Shown: positions 4,033-30,394 of the stretch, one piece after another | How positions within the stretch are numbered: the stretch's first letter is position 1 | Layout: the number at the start of each line of letters is the position of its first letter | Assembly: GCA_041165905.1 (NCBI GenBank) | Contig: JBEAMP010000052.1 | Span: 1-50,341, forward strand | Reading direction: 5' to 3' | Origin: Actinomycetota bacterium | GTDB lineage: Bacteria > Actinomycetota > Actinomycetes > Nanopelagicales > Nanopelagicaceae | DNA: 50,341 nucleotides | The notes under the pieces: model-generated | What the model was told of the DNA's origin: nothing | The model's database searches: none | Seen by the model: the letters and a program-made list of their open reading frames with translations, nothing else | Position numbers and translations under genes: made by a program

Positions 4033-7383
<3,351 letters not shown>

Positions 7384-12929: not shown

Positions 12930-13192
12930 CTTTTTGTTTATATATCCCTTTTATCCGAAAATTAATATATCGATAAATCGTTACGAATTAAAATCGAAAA
13001 CATATTTATCGACATTTAGAGGCGTAAAAACATCCACAAATATAAATTTATCGATATTTGTCAGAATCGATTTTACGAAGAATCATAGAGAAGGATTGGA
13101 AGAGAATTCCGATTTGTCGATAAAACAAGAAGTCGGAATAACGTTAATAGTAAATCCAACGAATTGTGGAAAAGGAAAGGTAAACTCTCGAC
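12930..13192. promoter_or_regulatory. AT-rich non-coding region carrying a nested array of TCGA-core repeats and DnaA-box-like 9-mers
   Basis: Largest intergenic gap in the window. Direct repeat ATTTATCGA(C/T)ATTT at 13004-13017 and 13046-13059. Inverted repeats at 12968-12989 / 13105-13122 and at 12990-12997 / 13067-13074. See findings. Confidence 0.6.
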
Positions 13193-13546
13193 ATGAACTT
13201 GAGAGCTATTAGAGGGGCGATTCAAGTAGAGGCTAATACTCCCGAGGAGATCGCATCAGGAGTTAAAGAGCTACTGCCTGCCATTTTGCAGGCTAATAAT
13301 CTAACCGCAGATGATGTTATCTCAGTGATTCTTACCTGCACGCCTGATCTAAATGCTGCCTTTCCTGCTGCCTTTGCCAGAGAGATTGGTTTTGGCGCCG
13401 TGCCACTTTTATGTGCGGTCGAGATGGATGTCCCCGGCGCATTACCGCTGGTTATTCGTGTGATGCTTCATGCGCAGCTTAAATCGGTTGCCAATCATGT
13501 TTATCTTCGAGGGGCCACTTCGCTACGTAAAGATTTAGCCCAATAA
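13193..13546 (+). CDS. aroH: Chorismate mutase, AroH class
   Basis: RAIRGAI N-terminus, TPDLNAAFPA and MDVPGALP..IRVM, closely resembling B. subtilis AroH. Confidence 0.9.
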   Translation: MNLRAIRGAIQVEANTPEEIASGVKELLPAILQANNLTADDVISVILTCTPDLNAAFPAAFAREIGFGAVPLLCAVEMDVPGALPLVIRVMLHAQLKSVANHVYLRGATSLRKDLAQ

Positions 13547-13570
13547 GGTTGCAAGGTTGTATCTGAATCT

Positions 13571-14611
13571 ATGAAAATTGTAGTTATTGGAGCCGGTCTA
13601 ATCGGCACATCAATTGCCTTGGGCGCAAAGCGGGCTGGAGCAGAGGTCCAACTTTTTGATGAAGATGGCCGCGCACAGAATTTAGCTAACGACTTAGTCG
13701 AATCAGTTGTAATTGAAGATCCTACTATTGTGGTCATTGCGACGCCGACAAGTGCGCTTTCGGGTGTAGTAAATAGATACAAAAATCTGTATCCAAAGTC
13801 AACGTTTATAGATATAGGTAGCACAAAAACTAAAGTTAAAGTAGAAGTACAAACAGATAAAGCGCTATCTAAACGTTTTTGTCCTACCCATCCAATGGCA
13901 GGAAGAGAGCTTGATGGGGCAGAGGCGGCGCAATCTGATCTCTTTGTAGGAAAGAGTTGGATCATTACTCCACTTCCCGAAACATCTGGAGAATCTATAG
14001 CGTTGGTAAAAGAGCTAATCGAAAAGCTAGGCGCCAGAGTTATAGCTATGAGCCCAGAAGATCATGATTCTGCGGTAGCTTCGGTAAGCCATCTCCCACA
14101 GATAATTTCATCGCTATTAGCTGCCCAATTAGAGAATAAAAGTCCGGAATTCCTTGCTCTTGCAGGTTCTGGGGTTATGGATACCACGCGGATCGCCGGT
14201 TCTAATCCCGATCTTTGGCGGGAGATACTTCGTTTGAATCGTGAGGCAATCGAACCCCTTTTAAAAGATTTCCAAAAAGATTTATCGACATTAATCGACA
14301 ATTACGATGTCGAAAACGTTTTACACCGTGGCCGTAAAGGTCGCCACCTATTGCCAGGAAAGCATAGAAGCGCTTCTCGTAATTACACCTACTTGCCTGT
14401 AGTGCTCGAAGATAAGCCAAATCAGTTGGCTCTGTTATTTGATGAATGTGCAAAAGCTAATGTAAACGTGGAAGATATCACTATTGAACATTCACCAGAG
14501 CAAGAGACAGGTTTAGTTTTGTTAGCTTTAAGCGCACCAAATGCAGAGTTGTTACAGAAACATTTAGCAACTTCAGGTTGGCGCGTGCATCCTCCACGAT
14601 CGGAGAAGTAA
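13571..14611 (+). CDS. tyrA: Prephenate dehydrogenase
   Basis: Rossmann MKIVVIGAGLIGTSIA, HPMAG motif and a C-terminal ACT-like segment. Confidence 0.9.
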   Translation: MKIVVIGAGLIGTSIALGAKRAGAEVQLFDEDGRAQNLANDLVESVVIEDPTIVVIATPTSALSGVVNRYKNLYPKSTFIDIGSTKTKVKVEVQTDKALSKRFCPTHPMAGRELDGAEAAQSDLFVGKSWIITPLPETSGESIALVKELIEKLGARVIAMSPEDHDSAVASVSHLPQIISSLLAAQLENKSPEFLALAGSGVMDTTRIAGSNPDLWREILRLNREAIEPLLKDFQKDLSTLIDNYDVENVLHRGRKGRHLLPGKHRSASRNYTYLPVVLEDKPNQLALLFDECAKANVNVEDITIEHSPEQETGLVLLALSAPNAELLQKHLATSGWRVHPPRSEK

Positions 14612-16564
14612 ATGCCAATCATTGTTGCAATGGATGGTCCGAGCGGAGCAGGCAAATCCAGTTCGTCTAAAGCATTAGCTAAAAGAGCAAATTGGAATTA
14701 TTTGGATACCGGTGCGTTGTATCGCGGCGCAACCTGGCTGGCGTTAAATAAGAAAATTACTAATCAAACCGAACTGGTTTTAGCACTTCGGGATGAAAAA
14801 TTAACTTTTAATCCTGATCCAAATAAGCCAAATTTAAAATGCGGCAAAGTTGATATTACTGAAGCTATCAGAAGTGAAGAGATAACTTCGAACGTATCTA
14901 CTTTTGCGGCCATGCCAGAAGTTCGCGCAGAATTATTGACCTTGCAAAGAAAAATAATTGAAGAAGCTCAACGAGGAATTGTTGTGGAGGGTCGCGATAT
15001 CGGCACTGTAGTTGCGCCACAATCGCAACTAAAGATTTTTTTAACCGCAGATTTACAAGCGCGAGCTAAGCGTCGAGAAGCAGAGTTAAATACTGATAAG
15101 GATCTAGCGGAATCTTTAGCGCTTAGAGATGAAAAAGATTCAACTCGGCAAACATCGCCTCTTGAAAAAGCCGTTGATGCAGTTGAGGTTGATTCGACTG
15201 AAATTAATTTAGAAGAAACAGTTGAGTTGATATGGGAACTTTTAAAGGAGCGGCAACTGCTGGGTTTACCTATTGTGGCAATTCTTGGCAGACCTAATGT
15301 TGGAAAATCAACTTTAATTAATCGTTTTCTTGGAAGACGCGAAGCAATTGTCGAAGATGTTCCTGGTGTTACTAGAGATCGTGTTCGCTACGAATGTGAA
15401 TGGAATTCAAGAGAATTTATTTTGATGGATACAGGGGGATGGGAATCGCATCCTGATGGGATATCAATTGGTGTGAGCGCTGGTGCAGAGATAGCAATTC
15501 AAGAGGCTGATGTAATTTTGTTTGTAGTAGATGCTCAGGTAGGTGCTCAAACTGAAGATGAAGCGCTGGTTGATGCGCTTCGCAAATCCCAAAAGAAAGT
15601 CTTCTTGGTTGCCAATAAAGTTGATTCACCAAAAGAAGAAGCAGACGCTCATTCATTGTGGAATTTAGGTCTTGGAGAGCCACATTTTGTGACTGCACTT
15701 CACGGCAAGGGAAGCGCTGACTTACTTGATTTAGTTGTTGCATCTTTGCCAGAAGTGGGCAGTGGAATAGTTAAAGATAATCACCGCAAAGTGGCATTAA
15801 TCGGCAGGCCAAATGTTGGTAAATCTAGTTTGTTAAATGCAATTGCGGGAGAACAGTTGTCCTTAGTTGACGATAAAGCAGGAACTACACGTGATCCTGT
15901 GGATTCGTTAATTGAATTTGGTGGATCAACATGGCGTTTTGTAGACACTGCAGGAATTAAGAAGCGCGCAAATCAAGCAAGTGGTAGCGATTACTATTCA
16001 ACTCTAAGAACACAAGTTGCGCTAGAAAGAGCAGAAGTAGTTGCGCTTGTGCTTGATGCATCAGAGCCCATGACCGAACAAGATTTGAAAATTATTAGTA
16101 TGGTAGAAGATGCAGGTAAGGCTTTGGTATTAGTTATGAATAAGTGGGATCTAGTCGATGAAGATCGTCGCCTCGCATTAGATAAGGAACTTGACCGCCA
16201 CTTAACACATATAACCTGGGCGCAAAGGGTTAATGTTGCTGCAAAAACCGGTTGGCACCGAGATCGCTTAGCGCCGGCACTTCGAACAGCTCTTGCTTCA
16301 TGGGAAACTCGCGTTCCAACTGGAAAATTAAATTCTTTCCTTGGTGCGCTAATTGGCGCGACGCCACCTCCAGTTCGTGGCGGAAAGCAACCAAAGGTTT
16401 ATTACGCGACTCAAGCTGGCATCGCACCACCGAAGTTTGTGGTCTTTACAAATGATTGGATCGAACCGCCTTATCGACGCTTTATCGAGCGAAAGCTTCG
16501 TGAAGAGTTTGGCTTTGAAGGTAGCCCAGTTCAGGTTTCGGTAAAGATAAGAGAACGCGACTGA
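14612..16564 (+). CDS. der: Bifunctional cytidylate kinase / ribosome-biogenesis GTPase Der (EngA) fusion
   Basis: Single 650-aa ORF. The N-terminal 220 aa carry the Cmk P-loop (DGPSGAGKSS). Two GTPase domains follow (GRPNVGKSTLINR and GRPNVGKSSLLNA), then a KH-like C-terminus. Confidence 0.92.
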   Translation: MPIIVAMDGPSGAGKSSSSKALAKRANWNYLDTGALYRGATWLALNKKITNQTELVLALRDEKLTFNPDPNKPNLKCGKVDITEAIRSEEITSNVSTFAAMPEVRAELLTLQRKIIEEAQRGIVVEGRDIGTVVAPQSQLKIFLTADLQARAKRREAELNTDKDLAESLALRDEKDSTRQTSPLEKAVDAVEVDSTEINLEETVELIWELLKERQLLGLPIVAILGRPNVGKSTLINRFLGRREAIVEDVPGVTRDRVRYECEWNSREFILMDTGGWESHPDGISIGVSAGAEIAIQEADVILFVVDAQVGAQTEDEALVDALRKSQKKVFLVANKVDSPKEEADAHSLWNLGLGEPHFVTALHGKGSADLLDLVVASLPEVGSGIVKDNHRKVALIGRPNVGKSSLLNAIAGEQLSLVDDKAGTTRDPVDSLIEFGGSTWRFVDTAGIKKRANQASGSDYYSTLRTQVALERAEVVALVLDASEPMTEQDLKIISMVEDAGKALVLVMNKWDLVDEDRRLALDKELDRHLTHITWAQRVNVAAKTGWHRDRLAPALRTALASWETRVPTGKLNSFLGALIGATPPPVRGGKQPKVYYATQAGIAPPKFVVFTNDWIEPPYRRFIERKLREEFGFEGSPVQVSVKIRERD

Positions 16565-17127
16565 TGTTTACAATTCCAAATTTGCTTTCAATGCTTCGTG
16601 GCGCATTAATTCCGGTATTTCTTCTCTTGGCAGGCGATGGTCGCGACGCCTTGGCGTTGCTGGTACTTGCTATAGCTAGTTTGACGGATTACTTCGACGG
16701 AAAAGTTGCAAGGTGGTTAAATCAAGAGTCCGCACTCGGCGCCATACTTGATCCACTCTTTGATCGTTTTTACATTGCGGCCTCTTTATACGTTCTATGG
16801 GATCGCCAAATTTTCCCAACTTGGCTAGTTTTGGTTTTGATTCTTAGGGATGCCCTTCTTCTTTTTGTAAACCTGGGATTAAAACGTAGGAAATTGCCTC
16901 TTCTGGTTGTCAATTACATTGGTAAGGCTGCAACCTTTAATCTGCTCTACGCCTTCCCTCTACTCTTTCTTTCACAAAGCGAGGGATGGCTTGGCACCCT
17001 GGGATATCTTTTCGGGTGGGCATTTAGCGTTTGGGGTATCGCGCTCTATTTAATTACTGGAATTTGGTACTTTCTATCTGGCTTGAAAAGTATTAGATTT
17101 CCCAACGGATTAATCGTCAAAGATTAA
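16564..17127 (+). CDS. pgsA: CDP-alcohol phosphatidyltransferase (PgsA2 / actinobacterial cardiolipin synthase type)
   Basis: DYFDGKVAR........GAILDPLFD motif. Multi-pass membrane protein. Its position upstream of gcvH-garA matches Rv1822. Confidence 0.85.
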   Translation: MFTIPNLLSMLRGALIPVFLLLAGDGRDALALLVLAIASLTDYFDGKVARWLNQESALGAILDPLFDRFYIAASLYVLWDRQIFPTWLVLVLILRDALLLFVNLGLKRRKLPLLVVNYIGKAATFNLLYAFPLLFLSQSEGWLGTLGYLFGWAFSVWGIALYLITGIWYFLSGLKSIRFPNGLIVKD

Positions 17128-17167
17128 GAGAAGCTAAGAGAAGTTAACAGAAATAAGGAGCGCCATA

Positions 17168-17545
17168 GTGTCAAATGTGCCAGGAAATCTTCAGTACTCA
17201 AAAGATCATGAATGGGTTGAAGGTCTAGGTGGCAATCGCTACAAGATTGGCATTACAGATTACGCACAAGGCGCACTAGGTGACATTGTTTATGTGCAAC
17301 TTCCGAAAATTGGCGAATCTGTCACTGAAGGCGTAGTTTGCGGTGAAATTGAATCAACAAAGAGCGTTTCAGAATTGTTTTCACCTGTAACCGGGACCGT
17401 GGTTGCAATTAATGAGCAATTAGATTCCGCTCCAGAGACTTTAAATTCAGATCCATATGGCGCTGGATGGATTGCAGAGGTAGAAGTTTCAACACCATCG
17501 AGCTCATTGATGGATGCTGCTGGATACACCGCACTTATCGGCTAA
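17168..17545 (+). CDS. gcvH: Glycine cleavage system H protein
   Basis: Lipoyl-lysine motif (GEIESTKSVSELFSP) and YSKDHEW N-terminus. GTG start. Confidence 0.93.
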   Translation: MSNVPGNLQYSKDHEWVEGLGGNRYKIGITDYAQGALGDIVYVQLPKIGESVTEGVVCGEIESTKSVSELFSPVTGTVVAINEQLDSAPETLNSDPYGAGWIAEVEVSTPSSSLMDAAGYTALIG

Positions 17546-17628
17546 AACCTCCACTTGACGGTAACCCCTGCAACTCATTAAGTTCGCCCTCAAGGTTTAG
17601 TTAACGTAAATAGCTAAAGGGGTGAGAG

Positions 17629-18078
17629 ATGCCAGAGATTGAGTACGAGGTCACCTCTACTATCAATCTTGGACTGCGCTCAGTTGATTCTGAAGAAGCT
17701 TTAGAACAGCTAACTACTGAAGAGCGAAACGTTATTTCCCAATTAAACCCAGAATCTGCGATGTTAATTATTCATCGTGGACCAAATCGAGGAGAGCGCT
17801 TCCTTCTAGATTCCCCAGATTCATCTATTGGCCGTTCTGGCGACAATGATGTTGTTCTAGATGATGTGACTGTCTCTCGTAAGCATGCAAATATCCGAAG
17901 AGCGGGTGAACGTTTCGAATTGATTGATCTTGGAAGTCTTAATGGAACTTACGTTAATAATAATTCGATTGCTCGCGCTACTTTAACAAGTGGTGATGAA
18001 ATTCAATTCGGTAAATTTCATATGCTCTTTGTTCAAAATCTAAAAAATCAAAACAATTCTAAGAATTCAAAAAAGTAA
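17629..18078 (+). CDS. garA: FHA-domain regulator, GarA/OdhI family
   Basis: N-terminal Thr cluster (EYEVTSTI) and an FHA domain (IGRS..NDVVLDD.TVSRKHA......F.L.DLGSLNGTYVN). Synteny gcvH-garA-MerR. Confidence 0.88.
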   Translation: MPEIEYEVTSTINLGLRSVDSEEALEQLTTEERNVISQLNPESAMLIIHRGPNRGERFLLDSPDSSIGRSGDNDVVLDDVTVSRKHANIRRAGERFELIDLGSLNGTYVNNNSIARATLTSGDEIQFGKFHMLFVQNLKNQNNSKNSKK

Positions 18079-18107
18079 TCAGCGTTAGCAGAAATAGGAA
18101 AGATTAA

Positions 18108-18824
18108 ATGTCAGTTCCAGCACGTGCATACTTAAGTATCGGGGAAGTACTAGGACGTCTTCGCGGTGAATTTCCTGATGTGACTATTTCAAAGATTCGC
18201 TTTTTAGAATCTGAAGGTCTTATAGAACCACAACGAACTCCATCTGGATATCGCAAATTCACTGCCGCTGATTTGGATCGTCTGCGTTATGTCTTGCTTG
18301 CTCAAAGAGACCAATACTTACCTCTAAAAGTGATTAAAGATAATTTGGAAGCTATGGATCGTGGCCTAACTCCAGGTAACGGAAATACCGCGCCAGCGCC
18401 AAGACTTGGCGTGATTTCTACAGATTCAGATATAAGCGCAGCATCGTTTGCAGAGAGCTCTGAACTTCGGTTATCTCGAGAAGAACTTTTAAAAGCATCT
18501 GGCTTGAAGGATGAACAGCTTGTTGAAATCGAAAGCTATGGACTTATAACTTTAGTTGGTCGCTACTACGATGGTGATGCACTCGCTGTAGCTAAAGTTG
18601 TGACTGAATTAGCATCGTTTGGTATTGAAGCACGTCATCTGCGTTCATTTAAGTCTGCTTCAGACCGCGAGATTGGTTTGATCGAACAAGTAATCACACC
18701 TTTAACAAGACAAAAGAGCATCGAAGCAAAGGCGCGCGCTGAAGAGGTGCAACGCGAATTGGCATCCCTCTCGGTTAAATTGCATGCATCATTGGTGCGT
18801 TCTGGCTTAAACAGATTACGTTAA
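18108..18824 (+). CDS. MerR-family transcriptional regulator (FtsR / Rv1828-like)
   Basis: N-terminal MerR HTH (LSIGEVLGRLRGEFPDVTISKIRFLESEGLI.PQRTPSGYRKF). Conserved position after garA. Confidence 0.85.
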   Translation: MSVPARAYLSIGEVLGRLRGEFPDVTISKIRFLESEGLIEPQRTPSGYRKFTAADLDRLRYVLLAQRDQYLPLKVIKDNLEAMDRGLTPGNGNTAPAPRLGVISTDSDISAASFAESSELRLSREELLKASGLKDEQLVEIESYGLITLVGRYYDGDALAVAKVVTELASFGIEARHLRSFKSASDREIGLIEQVITPLTRQKSIEAKARAEEVQRELASLSVKLHASLVRSGLNRLR

Positions 18825-18837
18825 TCGAAGCTCAATT

Positions 18838-19311
18838 ATGATTCCGGTAGAGGTAGTGGGCGTTCGAATCGAGATGCCTTCAAATCAACCGATTGTGTTA
18901 TTAAAGGAAATCTCCGGAAGTCGATACCTACCGATTTGGGTAGGCACCGCAGAGGCGACAGCAATCGCTTTTAGCCAGCAAGGGATGATTCCTCAACGTC
19001 CACTTACCCATGATCTATTGGTAAATATTCTGGAAAATCAGAAGATTAAATTACGCTCTGTACATTTAACTGAGTTGCGTGATGGCGTTTTCTATTCAGA
19101 TTTGATCTTGGTTGATGAGCAAGGTGGAGAAGAGAAGATCTCTTCAAGACCTTCGGATGCTTTGGCTCTGGCAGTTAGAGTCGATGCTCCAATTCTCGCT
19201 CGTACTGAGCTTTTTGATGCCGCAGGTATCTCCATTCCAGAGCAGGGCGAAGATGAAATTGAGAAATTTAAAGAGTTCTTAGATGAGATTTCGCCCGAAG
19301 ATTTTGCCTAA
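18838..19311 (+). CDS. Bifunctional nuclease family protein (DUF151, Rv1829-like)
   Basis: VLLKE..G.RYLPIWVG..EA.AIA........RPLTHDL motif typical of DUF151. Confidence 0.8.
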   Translation: MIPVEVVGVRIEMPSNQPIVLLKEISGSRYLPIWVGTAEATAIAFSQQGMIPQRPLTHDLLVNILENQKIKLRSVHLTELRDGVFYSDLILVDEQGGEEKISSRPSDALALAVRVDAPILARTELFDAAGISIPEQGEDEIEKFKEFLDEISPEDFA

Positions 19312-19420
19312 TATGTACAACTCTAAACCTAAAGTAGAGGTTTTGTGCGTGTCGCTCCTTGTTGTCAGGTTAAAGGGGTCGTACATTTGGAGCCTCCCCA
19401 CAGGCAAGGATTCCTAAGTC

Positions 19421-19933
19421 ATGGCAAATATGACAACTCAAGAGCTTGAAACTATCGGTTATCGTGGCGCGACTGCATGTTCGGCTGCTGGAATTACCTA
19501 TCGCCAATTAGATTACTGGGCTCGCACTGGACTTCTTGAACCATCAATTCGCACCGCAACCGGATCGGGAAGTGCAAGACTTTATGGCTTTCGCGATATT
19601 TTGGTTTTAAAAATTATTAAGCGCCTATTAGATGCCGGGGTCTCGCTTCAAAACATCCGCACCGCAGTTGAGCACCTTCGTTCAAGGGGAATTAACGACC
19701 TTGAGAAGATGACCTTGATGTCAGATGGAGCTTCTATTTACGAATGCTCTTCTCCAGATGAAATTATCGACCTTCTACAAGGTGGCCAAGGAGTCTTTGG
19801 TATCGCGGTGGGCAAAGTGGCATCTGAAGTTGAAGGCTCTTTATCAACGTTGCAGGGCGAGGTTGATGGCCAGGTAATAGGTGGCGAAGGTAACGATGAA
19901 TTGGCCCTTCGTAGGAAAGCGCGAGGCGCTTAA
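19421..19933 (+). CDS. MerR-family transcriptional regulator (Rv1830-like)
   Basis: MerR HTH (AAGITYRQLDYWARTGLLEPS........R.Y.F.D). Conserved position before gcvP. Confidence 0.82.
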   Translation: MANMTTQELETIGYRGATACSAAGITYRQLDYWARTGLLEPSIRTATGSGSARLYGFRDILVLKIIKRLLDAGVSLQNIRTAVEHLRSRGINDLEKMTLMSDGASIYECSSPDEIIDLLQGGQGVFGIAVGKVASEVEGSLSTLQGEVDGQVIGGEGNDELALRRKARGA

Positions 19934-20014
19934 AAAGAATTAACCTTTCCCCATAAAGCTAGTTCCAAATTAGTTCGGCAGGGCTGTGGATTTAGATAGA
20001 AATGGGGAAGTGCG

Positions 20015-22843
20015 ATGACGTTTGCTTCACGTCATATAGGACCAACGCAATCTGAGATTGATTACATGCTGCAAACTCTTGGTTATAAGAGTTTGGAAGA
20101 TTTCGTATCACATGTAGTCCCGCAATCAATCGCACAGAAAACAAAATTAGTTGATGCGTTACCTAAAGCGCTCTCTGAACATGAAGCAATTGCAGCGTTA
20201 CGCGAACGTGCTGACAAGAATAAAGTTTTCCGAAGCTTAATCGGTATGGGTTACTACGGAACTATTACACCTGCTGTCGTGCTTCGAAATGTTATGGAGA
20301 ACCCGGCTTGGTATACCGCATACACTCCTTATCAACCAGAGATTTCACAAGGACGCCTTGAAGCGCTCTTTGCATTCCAAACAGCGGTAACAGATTTAAC
20401 TGCGCTAGATATTGCAAATGCGTCAATGCTAGATGAATCAACTGCAGCGGCTGAAGCGATGACATTAGCTCACCGATCATTTAAGGGAAGCGATGATGCA
20501 GTGTTTTTAGTTGATAAGAATGTGCATCCACAAACACTTGCGGTAATCGAAACGCGTGCTAATCCACTTGGTTTGAATGTAAAAACGTTTGATGTTACTA
20601 AGTATTCAGAAATCACAGATGAAGTTTTCGGTGTATTAGTTCAATATCCAAACACTTATGGCGCAGTTATTGATCATCATGAATTGGCAAAATGGGTTCA
20701 CGACAAAGGTGGAGTAGTGGTTGCAGCTGCTGACCTGCTTGCTTTGACAATGATTAAAGCGCCAGGTGAATGGGGCGCAGATGTAGCAGTAGGTTCTACT
20801 CAGAGATTTGGTGTGCCGATGGGATTCGGTGGACCACATGCTGGATATTTGGCGGTTAGAAGTGGATTAGAACGTTCTATGCCTGGACGTTTAGTTGGGC
20901 AGTCAATTGATGCACATGGCGCACCAGCTTTCCGTTTGGCGCTTCAAACTCGCGAACAACATATTCGACGTGAAAAAGCGACCTCAAATATCTGTACTGC
21001 CCAAGTTTTGTTAGCAGTCATGGCCGCGTTCTACACCATGTGGCACGGACCTAAGGGACTAAAAGAGATTGCAGAGCGAATTCATTCAATTGCTGCACGT
21101 TGGGCGGCTTCAGCGCCTAATTCAAATAAATCTTTCTTCGATACAGTTACTTTTGATGGCAATGCAGCGCAAGTTAAAGCAGCTGCAGATCTTGGCATCA
21201 ATGTACGCGTGGTAGATGCAAATCGAGTAAGTGTCTCATTTGATGAACTTTCAAATGAAGAGTTGTTAAATGATTTAGCAAAGGCATTTGGAGTAACTCT
21301 TGCAAGCAAGGGGGAGAGCAGTATCCCTGCTACGTTGATTCGTTCAAGTGCTTATTTGACAAATCCGGTTTTCAATACTTATCACAATGAAACAGCGATG
21401 ATGCGTTATATGCGCACTCTCTCTGATAGAGATTTAGCGCTGGATCGAACCATGATTCCACTTGGCTCATGTACCATGAAATTAAACGCCGCAACCGAGA
21501 TGGAGTCAGTAACTTGGCCAGAATTTGGACAGTTACATCCATTTGCGCCGGCTGATCAAAATCAGGGTTCTCGACAATTAGTTAAGGAGCTCTCTGATTG
21601 GTTGGTGGCAATTACAGGCTATGACAATGTTTCTTTGCAACCAAATTCTGGAGCTCAAGGAGAATTTGCGGGTCTATTGGCAATTCGTAAATACCTTGAT
21701 GCAAATGGTGGGGCAGAGCGAAATATCTGTTTAATTCCATCGTCTGCTCATGGCACTAATGCCGCCTCTGCAGTTATGGCAGGTATGAAAGTAGTTGTAG
21801 TTGCATGTGATGAAACTGGAAATGTTTCTGTAGACGATATTAAAGCAAAAATCGAAGCAAATGCCGGAAAATTAGCCGCTTTAATGGTCACTTATCCATC
21901 AACTCATGGTGTTTTCGAATCTGCTATTTCAGAAATTTGCGAATTAGTTCATAACGCCGGAGGACAGGTTTATGTCGATGGCGCTAATTTAAATGCGCTA
22001 GTTGGCACTGCGCAGCCTGGAAAATTCGGCGGAGATGTTTCGCATTTAAATTTACATAAAACATTTTCAATTCCGCACGGTGGTGGCGGACCTGGCGTTG
22101 GTCCAGTTATTGCAAGAGCACACCTTGCTCCATATTTACCAAACCATCCACTTGATCCAACTTGTGGGCCAGCAACTGGTCCTGGACCAATTTCGGCTGC
22201 ACCTTTTGGTTCTGCAAGTATTTTGCCAATTTCATGGTCGTACATTGCAATGATGGGTGGCGATGGTTTAACCAGAGCAACCCAAACTGCGATTCTCTCG
22301 GCAAATTACATCGCTCATGTACTAAAGAAAGATTTCCCAATTCTGTATACAGGTGCAAATGATTTGGTTGCTCATGAATGCATATTGGATATCCGAGAAA
22401 TCACTAAGGAAACTGGCGTGACTGTAGACGATATCGCTAAGCGACTTATGGATTTTGGTTTCCATGCCCCAACAATGTCGTTTCCGGTACCAGGTACATT
22501 GATGGTAGAACCAACAGAATCTGAAGATTTAACTGAGATCAATCGATTTATCGCCGCGATGCAACAGATTGCAGCTGAAATTGATGCCATCCGCAAAGGC
22601 AAGGTAAATGTGGAGGAGAGCGCACTGCGCCATGCTCCACACACCGCTCTTAGCCTGCTAGCAAGCGACTGGAACCGTCCTTATAGCCGTGAAGAGGCCG
22701 CTTTTGCAGCATCTACAACTGGTAATGGCAATCTCTTAATGGGTCGCAAAGGAAAGTATTTCCCAACGGTTGGTCGAATCGATGGGGCGCACGGGGATAG
22801 AAACCTGATCTGCAGTTGCCCGCCAGTTAGCGATTTCGAGTAG
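20015..22843 (+). CDS. gcvP: Glycine dehydrogenase (decarboxylating), single-chain P protein
   Basis: 942 aa. F..RHIGP N-terminus, [14 protein letters not shown], and the PLP-lysine region ([18 protein letters not shown]). Confidence 0.96.
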
Positions 22844-22845
22844 TT

Positions 22846-23586
22846 TTACTTAACATAATGTAACTTATCGGCGGTTGGGTTAATTCGGCGCCTAAGCCCA
22901 AGCCAAGTTACCTTAAAGATCGCCTCAAGCACGATTCGCCTGCTCATTTTCGAGCTTCCCTGGGCCCGCTCTATAAAAGTTATTGGCACTTCAATCACTT
23001 TGTATGCCGGCAAGTGATTTAGCGCAAATGCCATTTCAATTTGGTAGCAATAGCCATTTGAAGTTATCTGATCAAAATCTAATTCTTCTAGTGCAACTCT
23101 TGGATAGATACGAAATCCACCTGTTAAATCATTTATATCCATTTTGAGGGCCCATTTGGCATATCTAGTACCTGCTTTAGAAAGCCATTTACGACTTTTT
23201 GGCCAATTAACGATTTGGCCACCTGGGATCCATCTGGAACCAAGAATTATCGCTTTTGGATTCAGATTTGCTATTTCCAGCATTTTTTCCAAATCTTCGG
23301 CCCTATGTGATCCATCTGCATCCATCGAAATTAAATGTGTAAATTCTGAATTCTCTAAAATCTTTTTGATTCCAGCTTTATATGCATTTCCTAGACCATC
23401 TTTTTCGGCGCGTTTCAAAATGTCGACATTTTTATAGTTGAAAGATTTAACTAAATCCGCAGTTTTATCTGGTGAATTGTCGTCTATAACTAATATCTTT
23501 AAATTTTCAACCGTTGTTAGATTTTTTAATATGCTTCCTATGTTTTTTGTTTCATTGTAAGTTGGCATTAGAACTATAGGCTTCAT
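22846..23586 (-). CDS. ppm1: Family 2 glycosyltransferase, polyprenol-phosphate mannose synthase-like (Ppm1 catalytic domain)
   Basis: PTYNE..NI, VIDDNSPD.T and DADGSH motifs. Position corresponds to Rv2051c. Confidence 0.82.
   Translation of the reverse strand: MKPIVLMPTYNETKNIGSILKNLTTVENLKILVIDDNSPDKTADLVKSFNYKNVDILKRAEKDGLGNAYKAGIKKILENSEFTHLISMDADGSHRAEDLEKMLEIANLNPKAIILGSRWIPGGQIVNWPKSRKWLSKAGTRYAKWALKMDINDLTGGFRIYPRVALEELDFDQITSNGYCYQIEMAFALNHLPAYKVIEVPITFIERAQGSSKMSRRIVLEAIFKVTWLGLRRRINPTADKLHYVK
22848..22875 (-). other. dif: dif-like XerC/XerD recombination site (11-6-11)
   Basis: The minus strand reads ACCGCCGATAA-GTTACA-TTATGTTAAGT. E. coli dif is GGTGCGCATAA-TGTATA-TTATGTTAAAT. 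The XerD arm matches 10/11 and the inner ATAA/TTAT palindrome is kept. It lies at the plus-to-minus gene-orientation switch. Confidence 0.65.
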
Positions 23587-23602
23587 GATGATTCTCTTTG
23601 AT

Positions 23603-24505
23603 CTACCAATTTAAAGCCGATATTAATCGGTCAATTGATGCGCCCAAACCATATTGTTCTTGTAAATTTTTAATCTCATCCATTGATTTAGGTTTCTTTG
23701 GTAACTGCAATTCAATTTTTGGTAGTGGTACATCTATAGCACATGCAACTAACTTAGGCGCAAAAGATAAATAATCTTGTCCTTCAAGAATTTTTTTGCG
23801 TAAGCCGGCACTTAAATGTTCGTGTTCTGCTAAAGCACCTGCGATAGCCTCATCGGCTGTTGCATAATGCCTTGCGATAAGAGCAGCCCCTTTCTCTCCG
23901 ATTCCTTTGACGCCTGGCAGACCATCTGATGCATCACCGCGGAAAGTTGCAAATAAACCGTATCTGTCACCTGGAATGTCGTATTTCTTTGAAATCCACT
24001 CTTGGTTAACTAAATCGTGGTTGCTAATCCCCTTGGCCAAATAAATCACTTGAACATCAGGTTCGGGTTTGACTAATTGGAATAAATCTCTGTCGCCAGT
24101 AACTATACGAATCGGTCCAGATTCTGTAGCAGCATATGTTGCCATTACATCATCAGCTTCATAATCATCGGCGCCAACGACCGGAAAACCAAAGGCATCT
24201 AAGATGTCCAGCAAAATTGGTATTTGTGGAGTTAATAAATCTGGTTCTTCTTCGCCTTCTCCATCTTCTTCCAGGCGATTTGCTTTGTAATCTGGATAGA
24301 GTTCGACGCGCCAAGATGGTCTCCAATCGCCATCTAGGCACGCAACTAATCTGTTTGGTCTGTACATTGAAATTAATCTTGCCGTCATATCTAAATAGCC
24401 ACGAATAGCATTTACTGGAGTGCCATCTGGCGCCACTAAAGTGTCTGGCATTCCATAGTAAGCGCGATACCAAAGTGAACCGCTATCTAGAAGCATCAAA
24501 CTCAT
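23603..24505 (-). CDS. 5'-3' exonuclease / flap endonuclease (Rv2090-like)
   Basis: PIN-like N-terminus (LLDSGSLWYRAYY), acidic clusters (ADDYEADDV, TGDRDL) and an H3TH region (GLPGVKGIGEKGA). Confidence 0.88.
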   Translation of the reverse strand: MSLMLLDSGSLWYRAYYGMPDTLVAPDGTPVNAIRGYLDMTARLISMYRPNRLVACLDGDWRPSWRVELYPDYKANRLEEDGEGEEEPDLLTPQIPILLDILDAFGFPVVGADDYEADDVMATYAATESGPIRIVTGDRDLFQLVKPEPDVQVIYLAKGISNHDLVNQEWISKKYDIPGDRYGLFATFRGDASDGLPGVKGIGEKGAALIARHYATADEAIAGALAEHEHLSAGLRKKILEGQDYLSFAPKLVACAIDVPLPKIELQLPKKPKSMDEIKNLQEQYGLGASIDRLISALNW

Positions 24506-26862
24506 GCCACACCTCCTAAGTACACAACCACTCCCCGATCTAGCTTTTTAATAGCAGAGAGACATTTTTCTCTAAGTTCAGGTTTGGCACCTGCAACTTG
24601 ATTAAGTAAATCTATCAACTGTTTGGTTGCGCGGACAAAATCACCAACAGATAAATCTGAATTACGTAAAACGGAATTCAGACCATGACCGCCACCCCAG
24701 CGAAAAGCCATCCAACAAAAGCCAAAATCGGGTTCGCGTTGAGTCTTGACATCAAATTCACTCTCTAAGTTATGCAATTTTGACCAGATAGCAACTATCT
24801 CTTTGAGAGCATCTTGAACCTGATTATTAGGTATTTTGGGTGCTTCTGGTTTTCTGGATTCAAAGAGGAAAACAGATAATACGGAAGCTATTTCGATATC
24901 AGATAATCTACTTAATACACCGCTATTGATTGTCTCAGCAATTGAAAGATCTGATTCTGCATAGATTTTGGATAACATTTTGCCATTTGCAGTTACTTTA
25001 TCTCCATCAAGATATTTAAGATGATTTAGCACCTGAGTAATACGATCAAATGTTTTTGCAATTACATTGGTACGATTTTCAACTCTAGCAATCAATCCTT
25101 CATTTTCACGGATTAATCGATCCGCGCGTTCTGCTATCCGAGCATGCGCTTCTCTATCATTGCAAGAGTGACATGGATGTTGTCTAAGTGCTTTGCGATA
25201 ACCCGATAGTTCATTCTCTAAATGAGCTCTTTGTTTGTTATCTATTCGACTTCTCTTTGAAATAAGAACTTCTGCTTGTTTAATTTCACGACGGAGTTTT
25301 GCATAAGTGGAGAAATCTCCCAGGTGGCAGAGATTTTCAGTTGCGTAATCGTTAATGGCTTCAGTGTTCCGTCGAATTTGCTTGTCTAGTCCAACTACTG
25401 CCCTATCTGCTTGGAATTGGGCGAATGAAGATTTAAGTGAGTTTCGGGCTCTGTCTCTACCGTATCGCTCTAAGAGATTGATGGACATGTTATAAGTTGG
25501 CGAAAAAGAGCTTCGAAGCGGATAGGTGCGAGTTGCTGCAAGGCCGGCAGCAGTTGCAGAATCAACGGTTGGTGACCACATGACTACGGCATTACCTTCA
25601 ATATCAATTCCGCGTCGACCTGCTCTTCCAGTTAATTGCGTGTATTCACCCGGTGTAATTGGGACATGCCCTTCACCGTTCCACTTAGTTAATTTTTCAA
25701 GAAGTACGGTGCGAGCCGGCATATTGATTCCTAGGGCAAGAGTTTCGGTCGCGAAAATAGCTTTAAGTAAGCCTCTTTGAAATAGCTCTTCTACACAAGA
25801 TTTGAAAACCGGTAATAGGCCTGCGTGATGCGCAGCGATTCCACGTTCAAGTGCAGCTAGCCATTCATGATGCCCCAAAAGTTCTAGATCTTCCGAGCTA
25901 ATATTTGTCGTGTATTTAACTGCAGTCGCTTTAATCTCTTCTCGCTCTTCAGTGTTAGTAAGTCGCAAATTAGCAGCCAAACATTGTTTTACTGCGGAGT
26001 CACAACCTTGTCGTGAGAAAATAAAAGTGATAACTGGAAGCATCTGATTTGAATTTAATTTTTCAATGACCTGTGGTCTATCAAGTCTAGATTCGTCATC
26101 TTGACGGCCCCGATGTCTGGGTGTTCGTATTCTTCTCAACGCTTCTCTTTCGGTTCGAAAGAGCGATTGATTGACAGTCCCATCTTCATTAAAGAGATCT
26201 AAAAGTCGGTTACCGATCAATACATGTTGATATAGAGGTACTGGACGATTTTCAGAGACTATAACTTCAGTATCACCACGTACTACTTGTAGCCATTCGC
26301 CAAATTCCTCTGCATTCGAAACTGTTGCTGAGAGTGAAATGACTTGCACACTCTCCATAAGGTGTATAAGAACTTCTTCCCAAACTGCACCGCGAAACTT
26401 ATCCGCAAGGTAATGGACTTCATCCATAACTACGTACCCAAGATTGGTCAATGAATTTGAATTTGTGTAAAGCATATTTCTAAGCACTTCAGTTGTCATG
26501 ACCATAATCTCAGCATCGCTATTGATGCTGTTATCACCAGTTAATAAACCTACTTTTTCCTCACCAAAACGTTCGACAAACTCTTGATATTTCTGATTAG
26601 AGAGCGCCTTTATGGGTGTCGTATAAAAACATTTTTTACTCTGTTCTAAGGCAATGTATGCCGCAAATTCGCCGACGATGGTTTTTCCAGCGCCTGTTGG
26701 TGCAGCGACTAAAACACCTTTACCATTTTCGATTGCGTAACAGCCTTGGACCTGAAAATTGTCTAATTCAAAATCGAATGTTTCAAAGAAATTATTAGCA
26801 ATTGGATGAGTGCTCTTAGCTTTTGATGCCGCATACCTCTGGGCAGGACTTAATTCCGCCAT
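24502..26862 (-). CDS. helY: Ski2-like DEAD/DEAH-box helicase HelY
   Basis: Walker A (AAPTGAGKT), DEVH box (VVMDEVHYL), SAT, helicase C motifs (TETLALGINMPAR, QLTGRAGRRG) and a DSHCT-like C-terminus. Confidence 0.92.
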   Translation of the reverse strand: MAELSPAQRYAASKAKSTHPIANNFFETFDFELDNFQVQGCYAIENGKGVLVAAPTGAGKTIVGEFAAYIALEQSKKCFYTTPIKALSNQKYQEFVERFGEEKVGLLTGDNSINSDAEIMVMTTEVLRNMLYTNSNSLTNLGYVVMDEVHYLADKFRGAVWEEVLIHLMESVQVISLSATVSNAEEFGEWLQVVRGDTEVIVSENRPVPLYQHVLIGNRLLDLFNEDGTVNQSLFRTEREALRRIRTPRHRGRQDDESRLDRPQVIEKLNSNQMLPVITFIFSRQGCDSAVKQCLAANLRLTNTEEREEIKATAVKYTTNISSEDLELLGHHEWLAALERGIAAHHAGLLPVFKSCVEELFQRGLLKAIFATETLALGINMPARTVLLEKLTKWNGEGHVPITPGEYTQLTGRAGRRGIDIEGNAVVMWSPTVDSATAAGLAATRTYPLRSSFSPTYNMSINLLERYGRDRARNSLKSSFAQFQADRAVVGLDKQIRRNTEAINDYATENLCHLGDFSTYAKLRREIKQAEVLISKRSRIDNKQRAHLENELSGYRKALRQHPCHSCNDREAHARIAERADRLIRENEGLIARVENRTNVIAKTFDRITQVLNHLKYLDGDKVTANGKMLSKIYAESDLSIAETINSGVLSRLSDIEIASVLSVFLFESRKPEAPKIPNNQVQDALKEIVAIWSKLHNLESEFDVKTQREPDFGFCWMAFRWGGGHGLNSVLRNSDLSVGDFVRATKQLIDLLNQVAGAKPELREKCLSAIKKLDRGVVVYLGGVA

Positions 26863-27710
26863 GTAAGAAGAGCACTTTCAGATGACAAAATATGTGCAGG
26901 TAATGGTCCAATACGTTCTCCGTCGGCATAACAGATCGCATCTGCTTCAATTGTTATTGATTTTGCTCTGATAATTTCCACTTTAGGATGTTCCACGTGC
27001 TTACCTTCGTATACAGAAGGGAAAATTTGCACGAATTCTCTCTTGGAAACAGGGTTTAGAATCATTAAATCAAGTAGCCCATCATGAAGATCTGCATCAG
27101 GACATACCAACATTCCTCCTCCGTAAGACTGACCATTACCGACGGCAATTAACATTGCTTCTCGTACATAACTTTTGCCATCAATATTAAATCGGTAATT
27201 CTTTGGTTTAAATTTAGGAAGTTCTAGCGCCATTGCGACGTTATATTTAGCTGGACCTTTTGGCCATCTCATAGCGTTAGCTCGTTCATTTACCAACGAA
27301 TCAAAACCAGTAGATGCAATTGCACCAAAATATTCACCATCAATATTGCCCAAATCAATCGAAAGTGGTTCCTGATTCAAAGCGGCCCACAATGGTTCTA
27401 AAGGCTTATCTGGATTCCAACCAAGTGTACGAACAAAATCATTTCCAGTACCTGCTGGAATGGTTGCTAATGGAAGATTACTAATGGTGGCAATTTGAAT
27501 CGCCATATGTAATAACCCATCACCGCCAACTGCGATTAGTCCTGTAGCTGATGAAGCGGCTTTTCGTAAGTTCTCTTGTAACGAAATCGCATTTGCGCCA
27601 GTAATAACTTTGTATTCAATCTTCCTCTCAGTAAGGAAATTTGAAACTTGTTGCCCTACCTTAGCTCCGTTGCCGCGACCACTGGTTGGGTTAATCGCTA
27701 ATAGCCACAT
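26850..27710 (-). CDS. Diacylglycerol/lipid kinase family protein (YegS/BmrU-like)
   Basis: INPTSGRG N-terminus and the GGDGL motif (AVGGDGLLHMA). I chose the ATG at 27710, which overlaps the tatC 3' end by 20 nt. Confidence 0.82.
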   Translation of the reverse strand: MWLLAINPTSGRGNGAKVGQQVSNFLTERKIEYKVITGANAISLQENLRKAASSATGLIAVGGDGLLHMAIQIATISNLPLATIPAGTGNDFVRTLGWNPDKPLEPLWAALNQEPLSIDLGNIDGEYFGAIASTGFDSLVNERANAMRWPKGPAKYNVAMALELPKFKPKNYRFNIDGKSYVREAMLIAVGNGQSYGGGMLVCPDADLHDGLLDLMILNPVSKREFVQIFPSVYEGKHVEHPKVEIIRAKSITIEADAICYADGERIGPLPAHILSSESALLTWRN

Positions 27711-28458
27711 TACGGCGCCGATCATTAAGCAAAGCGATACCACCTGCTGCAAAGTAGAAAATATAGAGCGGCACTGCAAGTAGCAACATGGTCAATGGAT
27801 CAGCTGAAGGTGTAAATGCTGCAATAAAGAAAGTTATTCCAAAGACCCACATTCGCCATGGTTTGAGGATTGCTTTACCAGATACTGCACCCAAGAGGTT
27901 TAGGGTTACTAGAAAAACCGGAAGTTCAAAAGCCAGACCAAAGAGCAGAATCACACGAAGTACAAAATCTAAATAATCTCCGAAATTTATCAAGTTTTGC
28001 AGTTCGCTTGGTGTGAACCCAAAGAGAACACGGATTGCTACCGGAAGAATCAAATATCCAAGCGTGACACCACCTGCAAAGAAAGGAGTCGCAGCCGTTA
28101 GAAATAAGAATGCACGTTTCTTTTCATGTTTGTGCAATCCCGGTGAAACGAATGCCCATAGCTGGTATATCCATAGAGGTGCCGTGACAATTAAACCTGC
28201 GATTAAAGAAACTTTAATCTGCAAATTTATCGGTCCAAGAACACCGTTTATGTACAGCGCTCCACATTGTTCTGAATTAGTTCTTTGTGCCAATTCAAGA
28301 TTACATACCGGTTCAGCCAACTTTTGAACTATTGGGTTATAGATAAACCAGTTAGCGATGAAACCCAGACCGATAATTACGGAAGATTTAAAAACTCGTT
28401 CTCTAAATTCGGCTAGATGCTGAAGTAGCGGCATAGTGCCACTTGATGTGCTAGCCAC
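27691..28458 (-). CDS. tatC: Sec-independent protein translocase TatC
   Basis: HL.EFR.R N-terminus and six predicted TM helices. Adjacent to tatA. GTG start. Confidence 0.9.
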   Translation of the reverse strand: MASTSSGTMPLLQHLAEFRERVFKSSVIIGLGFIANWFIYNPIVQKLAEPVCNLELAQRTNSEQCGALYINGVLGPINLQIKVSLIAGLIVTAPLWIYQLWAFVSPGLHKHEKKRAFLFLTAATPFFAGGVTLGYLILPVAIRVLFGFTPSELQNLINFGDYLDFVLRVILLFGLAFELPVFLVTLNLLGAVSGKAILKPWRMWVFGITFFIAAFTPSADPLTMLLLAVPLYIFYFAAGGIALLNDRRRNVAISD

Positions 28459-28461
28459 GAT

Positions 28462-28638
28462 TTAGTTGTCTGGTGTGTTGTCCTTCTTATTATCCTCTTT
28501 GCCCTCTTTCATTTCGGACTTGAAGATACGAAGAGACTTGGCAACTGATTTAGCGGAATCAGGCAAACGCTTAGCTCCGAATAAAATTACCAGAACTAAT
28601 ACCAATAAAAGAATATGTGTAGGTTCGCGTAAAAACAT
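28462..28638 (-). CDS. tatA: Sec-independent translocase TatA/E (58 aa, below the ORF-track cutoff)
   Basis: Hand translation: MFLREPTHILLLVLVLVILFGAKRLPDSAKSVAKSLRIFKSEMKEGKEDNKKDNTPDN. It has the canonical TM helix, FG hinge and amphipathic helix. Confidence 0.88.
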   Translation of the reverse strand: MFLREPTHILLLVLVLVILFGAKRLPDSAKSVAKSLRIFKSEMKEGKEDNKKDNTPDN

Positions 28639-28647
28639 GGCTATAGA

Positions 28648-29478
28648 TTACTCGAGATATAGAGATTGGCTAGCCTTTATGCGAGTCAAAATTTGAGCGC
28701 GTAGATGTGGATCCTGAAGCTCTACTGCCCCGGCCAATGCCATTGTTTCAGAGATTAGCCACTCACCAGAGTAATAGTCGACTTGCTCACTATTGCCAAG
28801 TATCTCCCTGACCAACCGCTTCTCCCGATGGGTAGAAATTTTTGTGGATTTGGGAGTTTCATTTGATGGAACCAGATTCGGTGCCAATTCATTATTTTCG
28901 GTGATTGCTAAACTTTCGATTCTTGATATTTTAAATGTACGACGATCCTGAGCATTTTTGCAAAATGCTCTTAGATAGCTACTTCGCTCTTCTGTGTAAG
29001 TTTCAAATGGAATTACCTCCCGAGATTTACCGTTATAGACGATAGAGAGCACTCTATTTTGTTGAATTGCCTGAGAAATTTCCGATAAGTAAAGATCCGA
29101 CCTCGCCGGCTGGTATGAGATCTCAGTGCCCAATTTAGAAGTCAGTTTATTTTTAAGCGATTCCGCGCCTGCAATTCCTTGAGAGATTAATATTTCAAGG
29201 CCGATAACTAAACTTGCCAATTCAATTTGGGTAAGTGATCGAGGAGATTTCAACTCATCCGCATTGCGAACTGAAACATAACCATCTTCAAATTGAAACT
29301 CCATAAGTTCTAGCGGTGTTTGTCCTGGCAGACCACACATATAAAGTAACCAGAGATCCTTCTCAAGTTGCTCAACTGAAATCTGGAATTTCTCGGCAAG
29401 TTGCGCAATTGGTATACCTTGATGTTTAACGATAAAAGGTACCAAATCGAATAATCGCTCAAGCCTTGAATTAGCCAT
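28648..29478 (-). CDS. pafC: WYL-domain transcriptional regulator PafC
   Basis: HTH N-terminus (RLERLFDLVPFIVKHQGIPIAQLAEKF). Second gene of the pafB-pafC pair, upstream of tatA as in mycobacteria. Confidence 0.8.
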   Translation of the reverse strand: MANSRLERLFDLVPFIVKHQGIPIAQLAEKFQISVEQLEKDLWLLYMCGLPGQTPLELMEFQFEDGYVSVRNADELKSPRSLTQIELASLVIGLEILISQGIAGAESLKNKLTSKLGTEISYQPARSDLYLSEISQAIQQNRVLSIVYNGKSREVIPFETYTEERSSYLRAFCKNAQDRRTFKISRIESLAITENNELAPNLVPSNETPKSTKISTHREKRLVREILGNSEQVDYYSGEWLISETMALAGAVELQDPHLRAQILTRIKASQSLYLE

Positions 29479-30394
29479 GAATTGCCGCCAAATTACTGAG
29501 AGCTTTAGTTACTTCTGAAACTAGATTGATTGGCTGCATCACAAAAACATTAGGCGAATTTCTGAGTATTTCAGCCACCGCAACATTGAGAGAATCAAAT
29601 TGAATTTGGCAGGTGATCCAATCAGCTTCAGCGTCAATAATCTTTGATTTTGCCATTAGTGATGGTGCAAAATCTCTACGTATTTTGATAACCGCATCTA
29701 AAGTTGGAAAGTAGGTGTCTGGAAAAGCAAAACTCTCGCGTTCGAAGGCCTTGTTAGTTCGCTTGATTTCTCCAGCAAATCTATCTATTCGATAACTTCG
29801 ATGTTCGTTCTTTGAGATGTCATTAGCGTATAAATACCAACGTGAGTTACGAGAATAGAGGCCCAAAGGGGCAATTTTCTTGGTTTCGACTTGGTCTTCC
29901 TGGTTGCGGTACTGAATTTCTATGACCTTAGTTGATTCTATAGCTTCCAAAATTGCAGGAACTATCTCAGGTAGATGGGAAACAGTGGGCGCAATAGGCA
30001 ATTCAGAAAAATCTGAGTTAATTCCTAGGGATTGCAATCTTAAGGAAGTCGAAAGTGCGACGTCTTTAAGCGCACTCTCCTTCCATGCTTGTGAAGCAAC
30101 CGCCAACAATGTAATTTCTTCAGCGCTTAGCGGGCCAAGATCGAATTTGTATCTTTCTGGCAGGATTCGATAACCGATTTCATCTTCGAATAGCGGATCG
30201 ATGCTCCGCATCTCAATTTGAATTCCGAGTGAACGTAGCTCTTCTTTATCGCGTTCAAACATACGATCCGATGCCTCGGCGCTACCGTCGTACCCCGCCA
30301 CCGCCTTGAATATTTGTGTTTTAGTTAGAAATTTCTTTGTAGCTAACAAGCAAATGGTTAAATTAACTAAACGCTCATTCTTCTCCGATGCCAT
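29471..30394 (-). CDS. pafB: WYL-domain transcriptional regulator PafB
   Basis: HTH N-terminus (ERLVNLTICLLATKKFLTKTQI) and a WYL region (RWYLYAND). I chose the ATG at 30394, which overlaps the trmI 3' end by 20 nt. Confidence 0.8.
   Translation of the reverse strand: MASEKNERLVNLTICLLATKKFLTKTQIFKAVAGYDGSAEASDRMFERDKEELRSLGIQIEMRSIDPLFEDEIGYRILPERYKFDLGPLSAEEITLLAVASQAWKESALKDVALSTSLRLQSLGINSDFSELPIAPTVSHLPEIVPAILEAIESTKVIEIQYRNQEDQVETKKIAPLGLYSRNSRWYLYANDISKNEHRSYRIDRFAGEIKRTNKAFERESFAFPDTYFPTLDAVIKIRRDFAPSLMAKSKIIDAEADWITCQIQFDSLNVAVAEILRNSPNVFVMQPINLVSEVTKALSNLAAIHG

Follow-up and report, generated by a model that had tools for sequence, protein, structure and literature searches.

A probable chromosomal dif site embedded in the last codons of a glycosyltransferase gene in Nanopelagicaceae actinobacteria

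A dif-like site at a convergent gene junction

The DNA described here is a stretch of 50,341 nucleotides from an actinobacterium of the family Nanopelagicaceae (assembly GCA_041165905.1, contig JBEAMP010000052.1; hereafter the window), and the element in question is a 28-bp sequence resembling dif, the chromosomal site of XerCD recombination, located where two genes converge. The first of these genes is gcvP (20015–22843, plus strand), which encodes glycine dehydrogenase (TIGR00461, 1302.7 bits) and ends in a TAG stop codon at 22841–22843. The second (22846–23586, minus strand) encodes a 246-amino acid glycosyltransferase of family GT2 (PF00535, 91 bits), which resembles the polyprenol-phosphate sugar transferase Ppm1. 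The C-terminus of GT2 reads ...PTADKLHYVK, and its TAA stop codon is at 22848–22846. The gap between the gcvP and GT2 stop codons is 2 nt.

The dif-like site occupies 22848–22875 and reads ACCGCCGATAA-GTTACA-TTATGTTAAGT on the minus strand. It is composed of two 11-bp arms, whose inner motifs ATAA/TTAT are inverted, and a 6-bp spacer between them. The predicted XerC-binding arm is ACCGCCGATAA (22875–22865), the central region is GTTACA (22864–22859), and the predicted XerD-binding arm is TTATGTTAAGT (22858–22848), all on the minus strand. The XerD arm is separated from the gcvP stop codon by 4 nt, and the 28-mer as a whole supplies the final nine codons of GT2 along with the first base of its stop codon.

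The original prediction of a dif site at this locus gave a strand, coordinates, and sequence for the 28-mer, and all of these numerical statements were correct on re-reading. Its alignment to E. coli dif, with 10 of 11 positions matching in the XerD arm and CxxATAA retained in the XerC arm, was likewise confirmed, as was its account of gene orientation from the layout of open reading frames (ORFs), with plus-strand genes to the left of the site save for one pair and minus-strand genes to the right. Its description of the site as compressed into a 2-bp junction is also true. The convergent stop codons are spaced 2–59 nt apart across related loci of the GT2 type, in which the stop codon starts at position 28 of dif, and the 2 nt of the window is the smallest value among the 70 such loci measured.

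Match to known dif sequences

Chromosomal dif sites have been predicted for 66 actinobacterial genomes, including TACGCCGATAATCTACATTATGTTAAGT in N. farcinica and TAAGCCGATAAGCGACATTATGTCAAGT in M. tuberculosis (Kono et al. 2011, PMC3025954), and mycobacterial dif of this type has been used as an experimental tool for XerCD-dependent marker excision (bioRxiv 10.1101/758037; Xer-cise). From supplement 2 of that study we aligned 39 distinct predicted sites of Actinobacteria and constructed a weight matrix of 25 positions (Kono et al. 2011, PMC3025954). The window site scored 31.9 bits with this matrix, within the range of the training sequences (27.9–41.4 bits, median 36.5). The second-best site in the 50-kb window scored 1.6 bits, and the best scores in 200 random 50-kb sequences generated by a first-order Markov model had a mean of 5.6 (standard deviation 3.4) and a maximum of 20.5.

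The window site is identical to N. farcinica dif at 24 of 28 positions, and to the dif sites of M. tuberculosis and F. alni at 22 of 28 positions each. The arm sequences given as actinobacterial in the original prediction, CCGATAA and TTATGTCAAGT, agree with the table of Kono et al. No second copy of the 28-mer occurs in the window, even when three mismatches are allowed, and 141 distinct related loci have a single high-scoring site apiece.

Constraint on the DNA among relatives

A scan with the GT2 protein, taking one genome per species, yielded 28 loci, of which the close ones belong to metagenome-assembled genomes (MAGs) of Nanopelagicaceae or "Candidatus Planktophila" (acI) and to two complete chromosomes. 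The exact GT2 protein matched metagenome contigs only, of up to 104 kb, so that the window has no coordinate on a chromosome. Twenty of the loci are from Nanopelagicaceae genomes, have GT2 proteins 53–83% identical to the query, and were located through this protein rather than through the site. The 28-mer is found at the very end of GT2 in all 20. Positions 4–23 and 25–28 of dif are invariant among these loci, with variation confined to positions 1–3 and 24. Position 24, which is T or A in relatives, is the sole variable position in the conserved core, and it is also variable (C, T, or A) among the actinobacterial dif sites listed by Kono et al.

The GT2 tail ADKLHYVK is invariant in 21 of 21 sequences. 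To separate conservation of protein from conservation of DNA, we aligned the codons of 19 full-length GT2 genes (the window and 18 Nanopelagicaceae relatives) and compared invariant columns of residues having degenerate codons. Inside the site, seven of eight such columns use a single codon, and the pairwise identity of third positions is 0.99. Elsewhere in GT2, a single codon is used in two of 67 columns, and the corresponding identity is 0.53 (Fisher p = 1.4e-7 for the single-codon contrast). An examination of the gcvP/GT2 junction for frozen synonymous positions had been proposed along with the site; its outcome clearly favors constraint at the level of the DNA.

GT2 homologues outside the family have different or earlier ends and lack the tail. 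Two outgroup proteins have tails faintly like ADKLHYVK (..RGKLPFPV.. at 3685–4440 of locus L019 and ..TGRLPFVV.. at about 9992–10730 of locus L020), and there is no dif-like DNA at these ends.

Site contexts with and without GT2

When metagenome contigs were scanned for exact matches to the 25-mer GCCGATAAGTTACATTATGTWAAGT, at least 120 of them had it, each once. The convergent neighbor is gcvP in every related locus with enough sequence. Among the matches listed, a long ORF in the GT2 frame runs through the site in 66 of 113 contigs, fewer than 50 codons are open in this frame in 38 contigs, and GT2 is absent from about a third.

The 141 distinct loci, again among the matches listed, differ in how the gene on the XerC-arm side ends. 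In 78 of them this gene is GT2 and its stop codon begins at position 28 of dif, as in the window; in 11 the GT2 stop codon is two codons further on. In others the gene is lnt, which encodes apolipoprotein N-acyltransferase (TIGR00546). The lnt stop codon is the TAA of CCGATAA within the XerC arm in 25 loci and coincides with the outer edge of dif in 20. The site is intergenic in two loci, namely L046 (2650–2700), where it is located 24 nt past the stop codon of an exonuclease gene, and L049.

Where lnt ends in the XerC arm (L035, 3277–4650; L041, L061, L064, and 21 other loci), dif is read in a frame other than that used by GT2. In nine of these loci the gcvP stop codon also uses the last base of the XerD arm, and in at least one, L041, the stop codons of lnt and gcvP are only 16 nt apart, with every intervening base belonging to dif. 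Four architectures thus occur, each followed by gcvP: exonuclease-GT2-dif, as in the window, exonuclease-lnt-GT2-dif, exonuclease-lnt-dif, and exonuclease-dif. The XerC-arm side is therefore polymorphic within the family, in the form exonuclease-(lnt)-(GT2)-dif, and the gcvP side is constant. GT2 is absent even from a relative close enough to have 88% identity in gcvP.

In relatives that have both genes, GT2 is located directly 3' of lnt, which is the mycobacterial Ppm2/Ppm1 arrangement. In the outgroup locus L019, from a high-G+C Micrococcales MAG, the order helY-lnt-GT2 is kept, and an intergenic dif scoring 32.1 bits is located 2.3 kb downstream. In locus L021, from a different freshwater actinobacterial MAG, a gene for a XerC-like recombinase (5678–6559; TIGR02224, 326 bits) is immediately upstream of a GT2 homologue; the contig stops 219 nt past GT2, and no dif was seen within those 219 nt.

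These comparisons show that selection acts on the DNA and that dif is the fixed point of the locus. The site had been proposed to be under dual constraint, for coding and for recombination. Constraint on the DNA is demonstrated; dual constraint, as proposed, lacks support. Because GT2 is dispensable beside an unchanged dif and its tail is not conserved outside the family, the coding use looks like a passive consequence of compaction, and the ADKLHYVK tail like a passenger with no second function.

Gene neighborhood and XerD

All ORFs between 548 and 22843 of the window are on the plus strand, except for the pair at 9352–10625, and all ORFs between 22846 and 31241 are on the minus strand. The block co-oriented towards dif on the left (10667–22843, plus strand) contains scpA, scpB, rluB, aroH, tyrA, cmk-der, clsA, gcvH, odhI, merR, and gcvP, among others, and is syntenic in relatives. 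Further left are tlyA, ppnK, recN, pyrG, ald, xerD, and a parA-like gene. The block on the right (22846–31241, minus strand) consists of eight genes directed towards dif, encoding GT2, a 5'-3' exonuclease, a HelY-like helicase, a lipid kinase, TatC, PafC, PafB, and TrmI; it is syntenic in all Nanopelagicaceae loci examined. Gene content and order in the window are actinobacterial, and its G+C content is 42%.

The gene xerD (8460–9338, plus strand) is located 13.5 kb from the dif site and matches NF001399 with 307 bits (cut-off 279). The ORF scores higher with the XerD model TIGR02225 (299.6 bits) than with the XerC model TIGR02224 (268.3 bits). Residues 2–284 of its 292 amino acids align to E. 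coli XerD (1A0P) with an E-value of 1.2e-52, and all catalytic residues are retained (R, K, HxxR, H, and Y). The arms of the site are asymmetric, as in two-recombinase systems and in E. coli dif, which suggests that a partner XerC is encoded elsewhere. The order recN-pyrG-...-xerD-parA-scpAB matches Rv1696–Rv1710 of M. tuberculosis.

The pair at 9352–10625 (minus strand) consists of a gene for a ParA-family ATPase and a 131-amino acid ORF with no NCBIfam family match. These are the sole minus-strand genes in the left 22 kb, and they are found just downstream of xerD, oriented divergently to scpA.

Octamers, hairpins, and repeats near the site

The E. coli octamer of the FtsK-orienting polar sequences (KOPS), GGGNAGGG, is directed towards dif 53 times versus 7 times away from it in the pooled loci, and the window holds one copy. 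Control G-rich octamers are equally skewed because the genes are co-oriented. Sixteen distinct spacers between dif and gcvP contain GGGNAGGG on the gcvP strand, directed at dif. We considered this C-rich spacer element as a KOPS and rejected it, as the octamer forms the 5' arm of a short hairpin that precedes a T run.

Such terminator-like elements, a short C-rich hairpin (CCCTG...CAGGG or CCCC...GGGG) and a T run, occur in clades whose dif-gcvP spacer is at least 23 nt long. They are located 13–40 nt past the XerD arm (L009–L016, L027, L043, L050, and others) and have been lost from the clade of the window. The folding energies of the spacer hairpins are not significant. No terminator-like site was predicted in 22300–23400 of the window, which spans the gcvP/GT2 junction. 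The dif sequence is unchanged whether or not a terminator-like hairpin follows.

The sole inverted repeat touching the site pairs the dif center (22856–22866) with 22905–22915. It is not conserved in relatives and was therefore taken as chance.

Location relative to the replication terminus

In two complete Nanopelagicaceae chromosomes the site is close to the middle of the record, at 720,252 of 1,475,422 bp (48.8%) in OZ254162.1 and at 727,708 of 1,464,932 bp (49.7%) in OZ254141.1. Genes converge on the site in every relative locus, with ratios such as 8:0 on one side against 0–1:8–11 on the other. The bulk GC skew of the window switches sign at 22–23 kb.

Synteny with M. tuberculosis points in the same direction. 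The counterparts of the left flank are Rv1694–Rv1832 and those of the right flank are Rv2051c–Rv2130c. The remark in the original prediction that gcvB (Rv1832) and ppm1 (Rv2051c) are on opposite sides of the M. tuberculosis terminus region is plausible, as the dif of strain H37Rv would fall between these genes, which are separated by ~230 kb in M. tuberculosis, as compared with 2 nt here. The terminus position therefore appears to be ancestral. The H37Rv dif has been placed at 2,232,640 (Kono et al. 2011, PMC3025954).

A number of observations weigh against the identification of the 28-mer as dif or against its placement at the terminus. Uniqueness applies to the window and to the related loci, which for the complete chromosomes are stretches of ~20 kb, and the metagenome matches, having been chosen by an exact 25-mer, reveal the contexts of the site and not its rate of change. 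No second ORF matching a recombinase family was found among the window ORFs scanned, and the window encodes neither XerC nor FtsK. No KOPS-type polarity was demonstrable with GGGNAGGG in the pooled loci or from the one window copy. The mid-chromosome argument assumes that the OZ254162.1 and OZ254141.1 records begin near oriC. Regression by codon position attributes the flip in bulk skew mostly to a first-position coding-strand effect (0.32 +/- 0.02) that tracks gene orientation, and bulk skew was rejected as decisive evidence for this reason; local skew is weakly informative. In favor of the terminus, third positions in the window, and these only, have a side effect that is independent of gene strand (0.056 +/- 0.017). 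The cumulative strand-corrected GC skew at third positions (GC3 skew) peaks at ~26.8 kb (2-log-likelihood interval 25.5–28.2 kb), ~4 kb to the right of the site. GC3 skew was uninformative in 20 related loci, as orientation and side are fully confounded in these, and in Planktophila-like loci it is even of opposite sign.

The ~4-kb offset is due to two genes of atypical skew, and we do not hold it against a terminus at this locus. The genes for the HelY-like helicase (24502–26862, minus strand) and the 5'-3' exonuclease (23603–24505, minus strand) have third-position skews of the "wrong" sign (+0.14 and +0.09, respectively). From the mid-chromosome position in two relatives, the convergence of genes, and the synteny with M. 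tuberculosis, we infer that the replication terminus coincides with the site or is no more than a few kb away. The original prediction that the site marks the terminus is supported only indirectly, by the central location, if the records begin near oriC, and by the convergent genes; bulk skew is mainly a coding-strand effect, and the GC3 shift is ~4 kb off.

Discussion

As judged from comparison of sequences, the 28-mer is very probably chromosomal dif in this actinobacterium of the Nanopelagicaceae (acI). Its identity as dif is strongly supported by computation, through its agreement with the dif consensus of the phylum, its frozen synonymous positions, its persistence in loci without GT2, and the intact xerD nearby. 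By homology with E. coli and mycobacteria, XerC would bind the left arm (ACCGCCGATAA) and the XerD encoded at 8460–9338 the right arm (TTATGTTAAGT). When a chromosome dimer forms, FtsK would join the two dif copies at the division septum, and strand exchange across GTTACA, catalyzed by XerD first and then by XerC, would yield monomers. The reaction would be conservative and would take place between identical sister sites, such that the embedded codons are restored exactly; for this reason a gene could overlap dif harmlessly.

The simplest reading of the locus is that dif was immovable, streamlining deleted the surrounding DNA, and neighboring ORFs now end in or just past dif. The two complete chromosomes of relatives are about 1.46–1.48 Mb in size. 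With the intergenic space around dif deleted, whichever gene is on the XerC-arm side would run into the site. The GT2 frame passes through dif without a stop codon, which gives the tail ADKLHYVK and a stop codon that starts at the last base of dif.

We consider it unlikely, though worth stating, that the site has a further role in addition to dimer resolution. XerCD bound at dif could act as a barrier between the colliding GT2 and gcvP transcripts, substituting for the hairpin terminator between dif and gcvP, which would have been deleted in the most compacted lineages, including that of the window. A related idea is that the XerC-arm side is a hotspot at which lnt and GT2 have been gained and lost, perhaps through Xer-mediated events. 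If the barrier exists, dif would be a recombination site that has gained an additional function, in gene expression.

A stronger version, in which the site is derived from dif and serves mainly as a protein-bound roadblock or terminator substitute at the convergent junction, or else is a decaying relic unused in recombination, appears very unlikely. The lack of a predicted intrinsic terminator between gcvP and GT2 in the window is consistent with a roadblock, as is the hairpin and T run found in clades with longer spacers. However, the dif sequence is the same with or without that hairpin, and a relic would not hold 24 of 28 positions invariant across the family. Conservation falls on precisely the positions that are constant in dif throughout the phylum, both outer arms included, and an intact xerD has been retained.

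It is highly improbable that the 28-mer is instead the Xer site of a mobile or cassette element, such as an attachment scar of an integrative mobile element exploiting Xer (IMEX) or a dif module carrying GT2 or lnt, with the main dif located elsewhere. The polymorphic gene content on the XerC-arm side is what such an element might produce. In locus L027, moreover, the junction between lnt and GT2 (9984–10009) reads CGACGAAGAGTTACATTATGAAAAAA, which matches dif at 19 of 26 positions including the whole central region, and, if genuine, would form the left boundary of a GT2 cassette. However, this stretch is absent from the closest relatives and is probably due to chance, its significance being marginal after rough correction for multiple tests (p 0.01–0.05). 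The single high-scoring site in each of the 141 loci leaves no bracketing pair of Xer sites. The flanks are housekeeping genes whose synteny is conserved across the family and in the Micrococcales outgroup, no integrase, phage, or plasmid genes are nearby, and the location in the two complete genomes is mid-chromosomal.

That the tail matters to the glycosyltransferase and its likeness to dif is coincidental or secondary to coding is hardly credible despite the invariance of ADKLHYVK and the faint resemblance of the outgroup tails (GKLPF and GRLPF versus DKLHY), as the frozen third positions are beyond the reach of protein-level selection, the same DNA is retained without GT2, in another frame, or untranslated, outgroup GT2 proteins have different or earlier ends, and the sequence matches dif of organisms in which dif is intergenic.

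The Nanopelagicaceae (acI) are abundant freshwater bacteria known mostly from metagenomes. For this family, the 28-mer provides a sequence-defined marker of the dimer-resolution site and probably of the terminus, useful in orienting and closing MAGs and in anchoring growth-rate estimates that are based on coverage (peak-to-trough ratio). The locus is also a clean natural example of the extent of streamlining, in which an essential cis-acting site is the only "intergenic" sequence left and lends its bases to the last codons or stop codons of its neighbors. Its appeal lies in the family-wide embedding in gene ends and in the natural variants that serve as controls; knowledge of Xer recombination itself is unchanged. 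Among the papers searched, we found nothing on dif in Nanopelagicales or on conserved overlaps of dif with genes.

As in other actinobacterial dif sites, the window site has an 11-6-11 architecture, a conserved GCCGATAA ... ACATTATGTnAAGT core, and an apparent location near the terminus, and xerD is found in an equivalent syntenic neighborhood (recN-pyrG-xerD-parA-scpAB). Unlike these, its center, GTTACA, is absent among the 52 actinobacterial entries of Kono et al. that were compared and is invariant across the 20 family loci. The host has a G+C content of about 42%, as compared with 54–74% for most of the listed Actinobacteria, and the site is located within coding sequence, not between genes.

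The similarities to the E. coli dif/XerCD-FtsK system are the length of 28 bp, the 10 of 11 matches in the XerD arm, the inner ATAA of the XerC arm, the asymmetry of the arms, and a catalytically complete XerD orthologue. However, the XerC arm matches that of E. coli at only 6 of 11 positions, the spacer differs, and none of FtsK, KOPS, or Tus/Ter-type features was identified here. Single-recombinase systems (difSL/XerS, difH/XerH, and archaeal dif/XerA) would be alike in resolving dimers at a terminus-proximal site, by analogy. Their sites differ in length or symmetry, and the recombinase gene is often in direct linkage with them, whereas the arms of the window site follow the XerC/XerD pattern and the recombinase is best classified as XerD.

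About 6% of predicted dif sites fall inside coding regions, and more than half of these are in hypothetical ORFs (Kono et al. 2011, PMC3025954). The window site resembles these predictions in overlapping an annotated ORF. It differs from them in that the gene is well supported, the overlap is family-wide, and natural variants exist in which the overlapping gene is lnt in another frame or there is no gene. The element is ordinary in kind and is unusual only in having been compressed into the final nine codons of its host gene.

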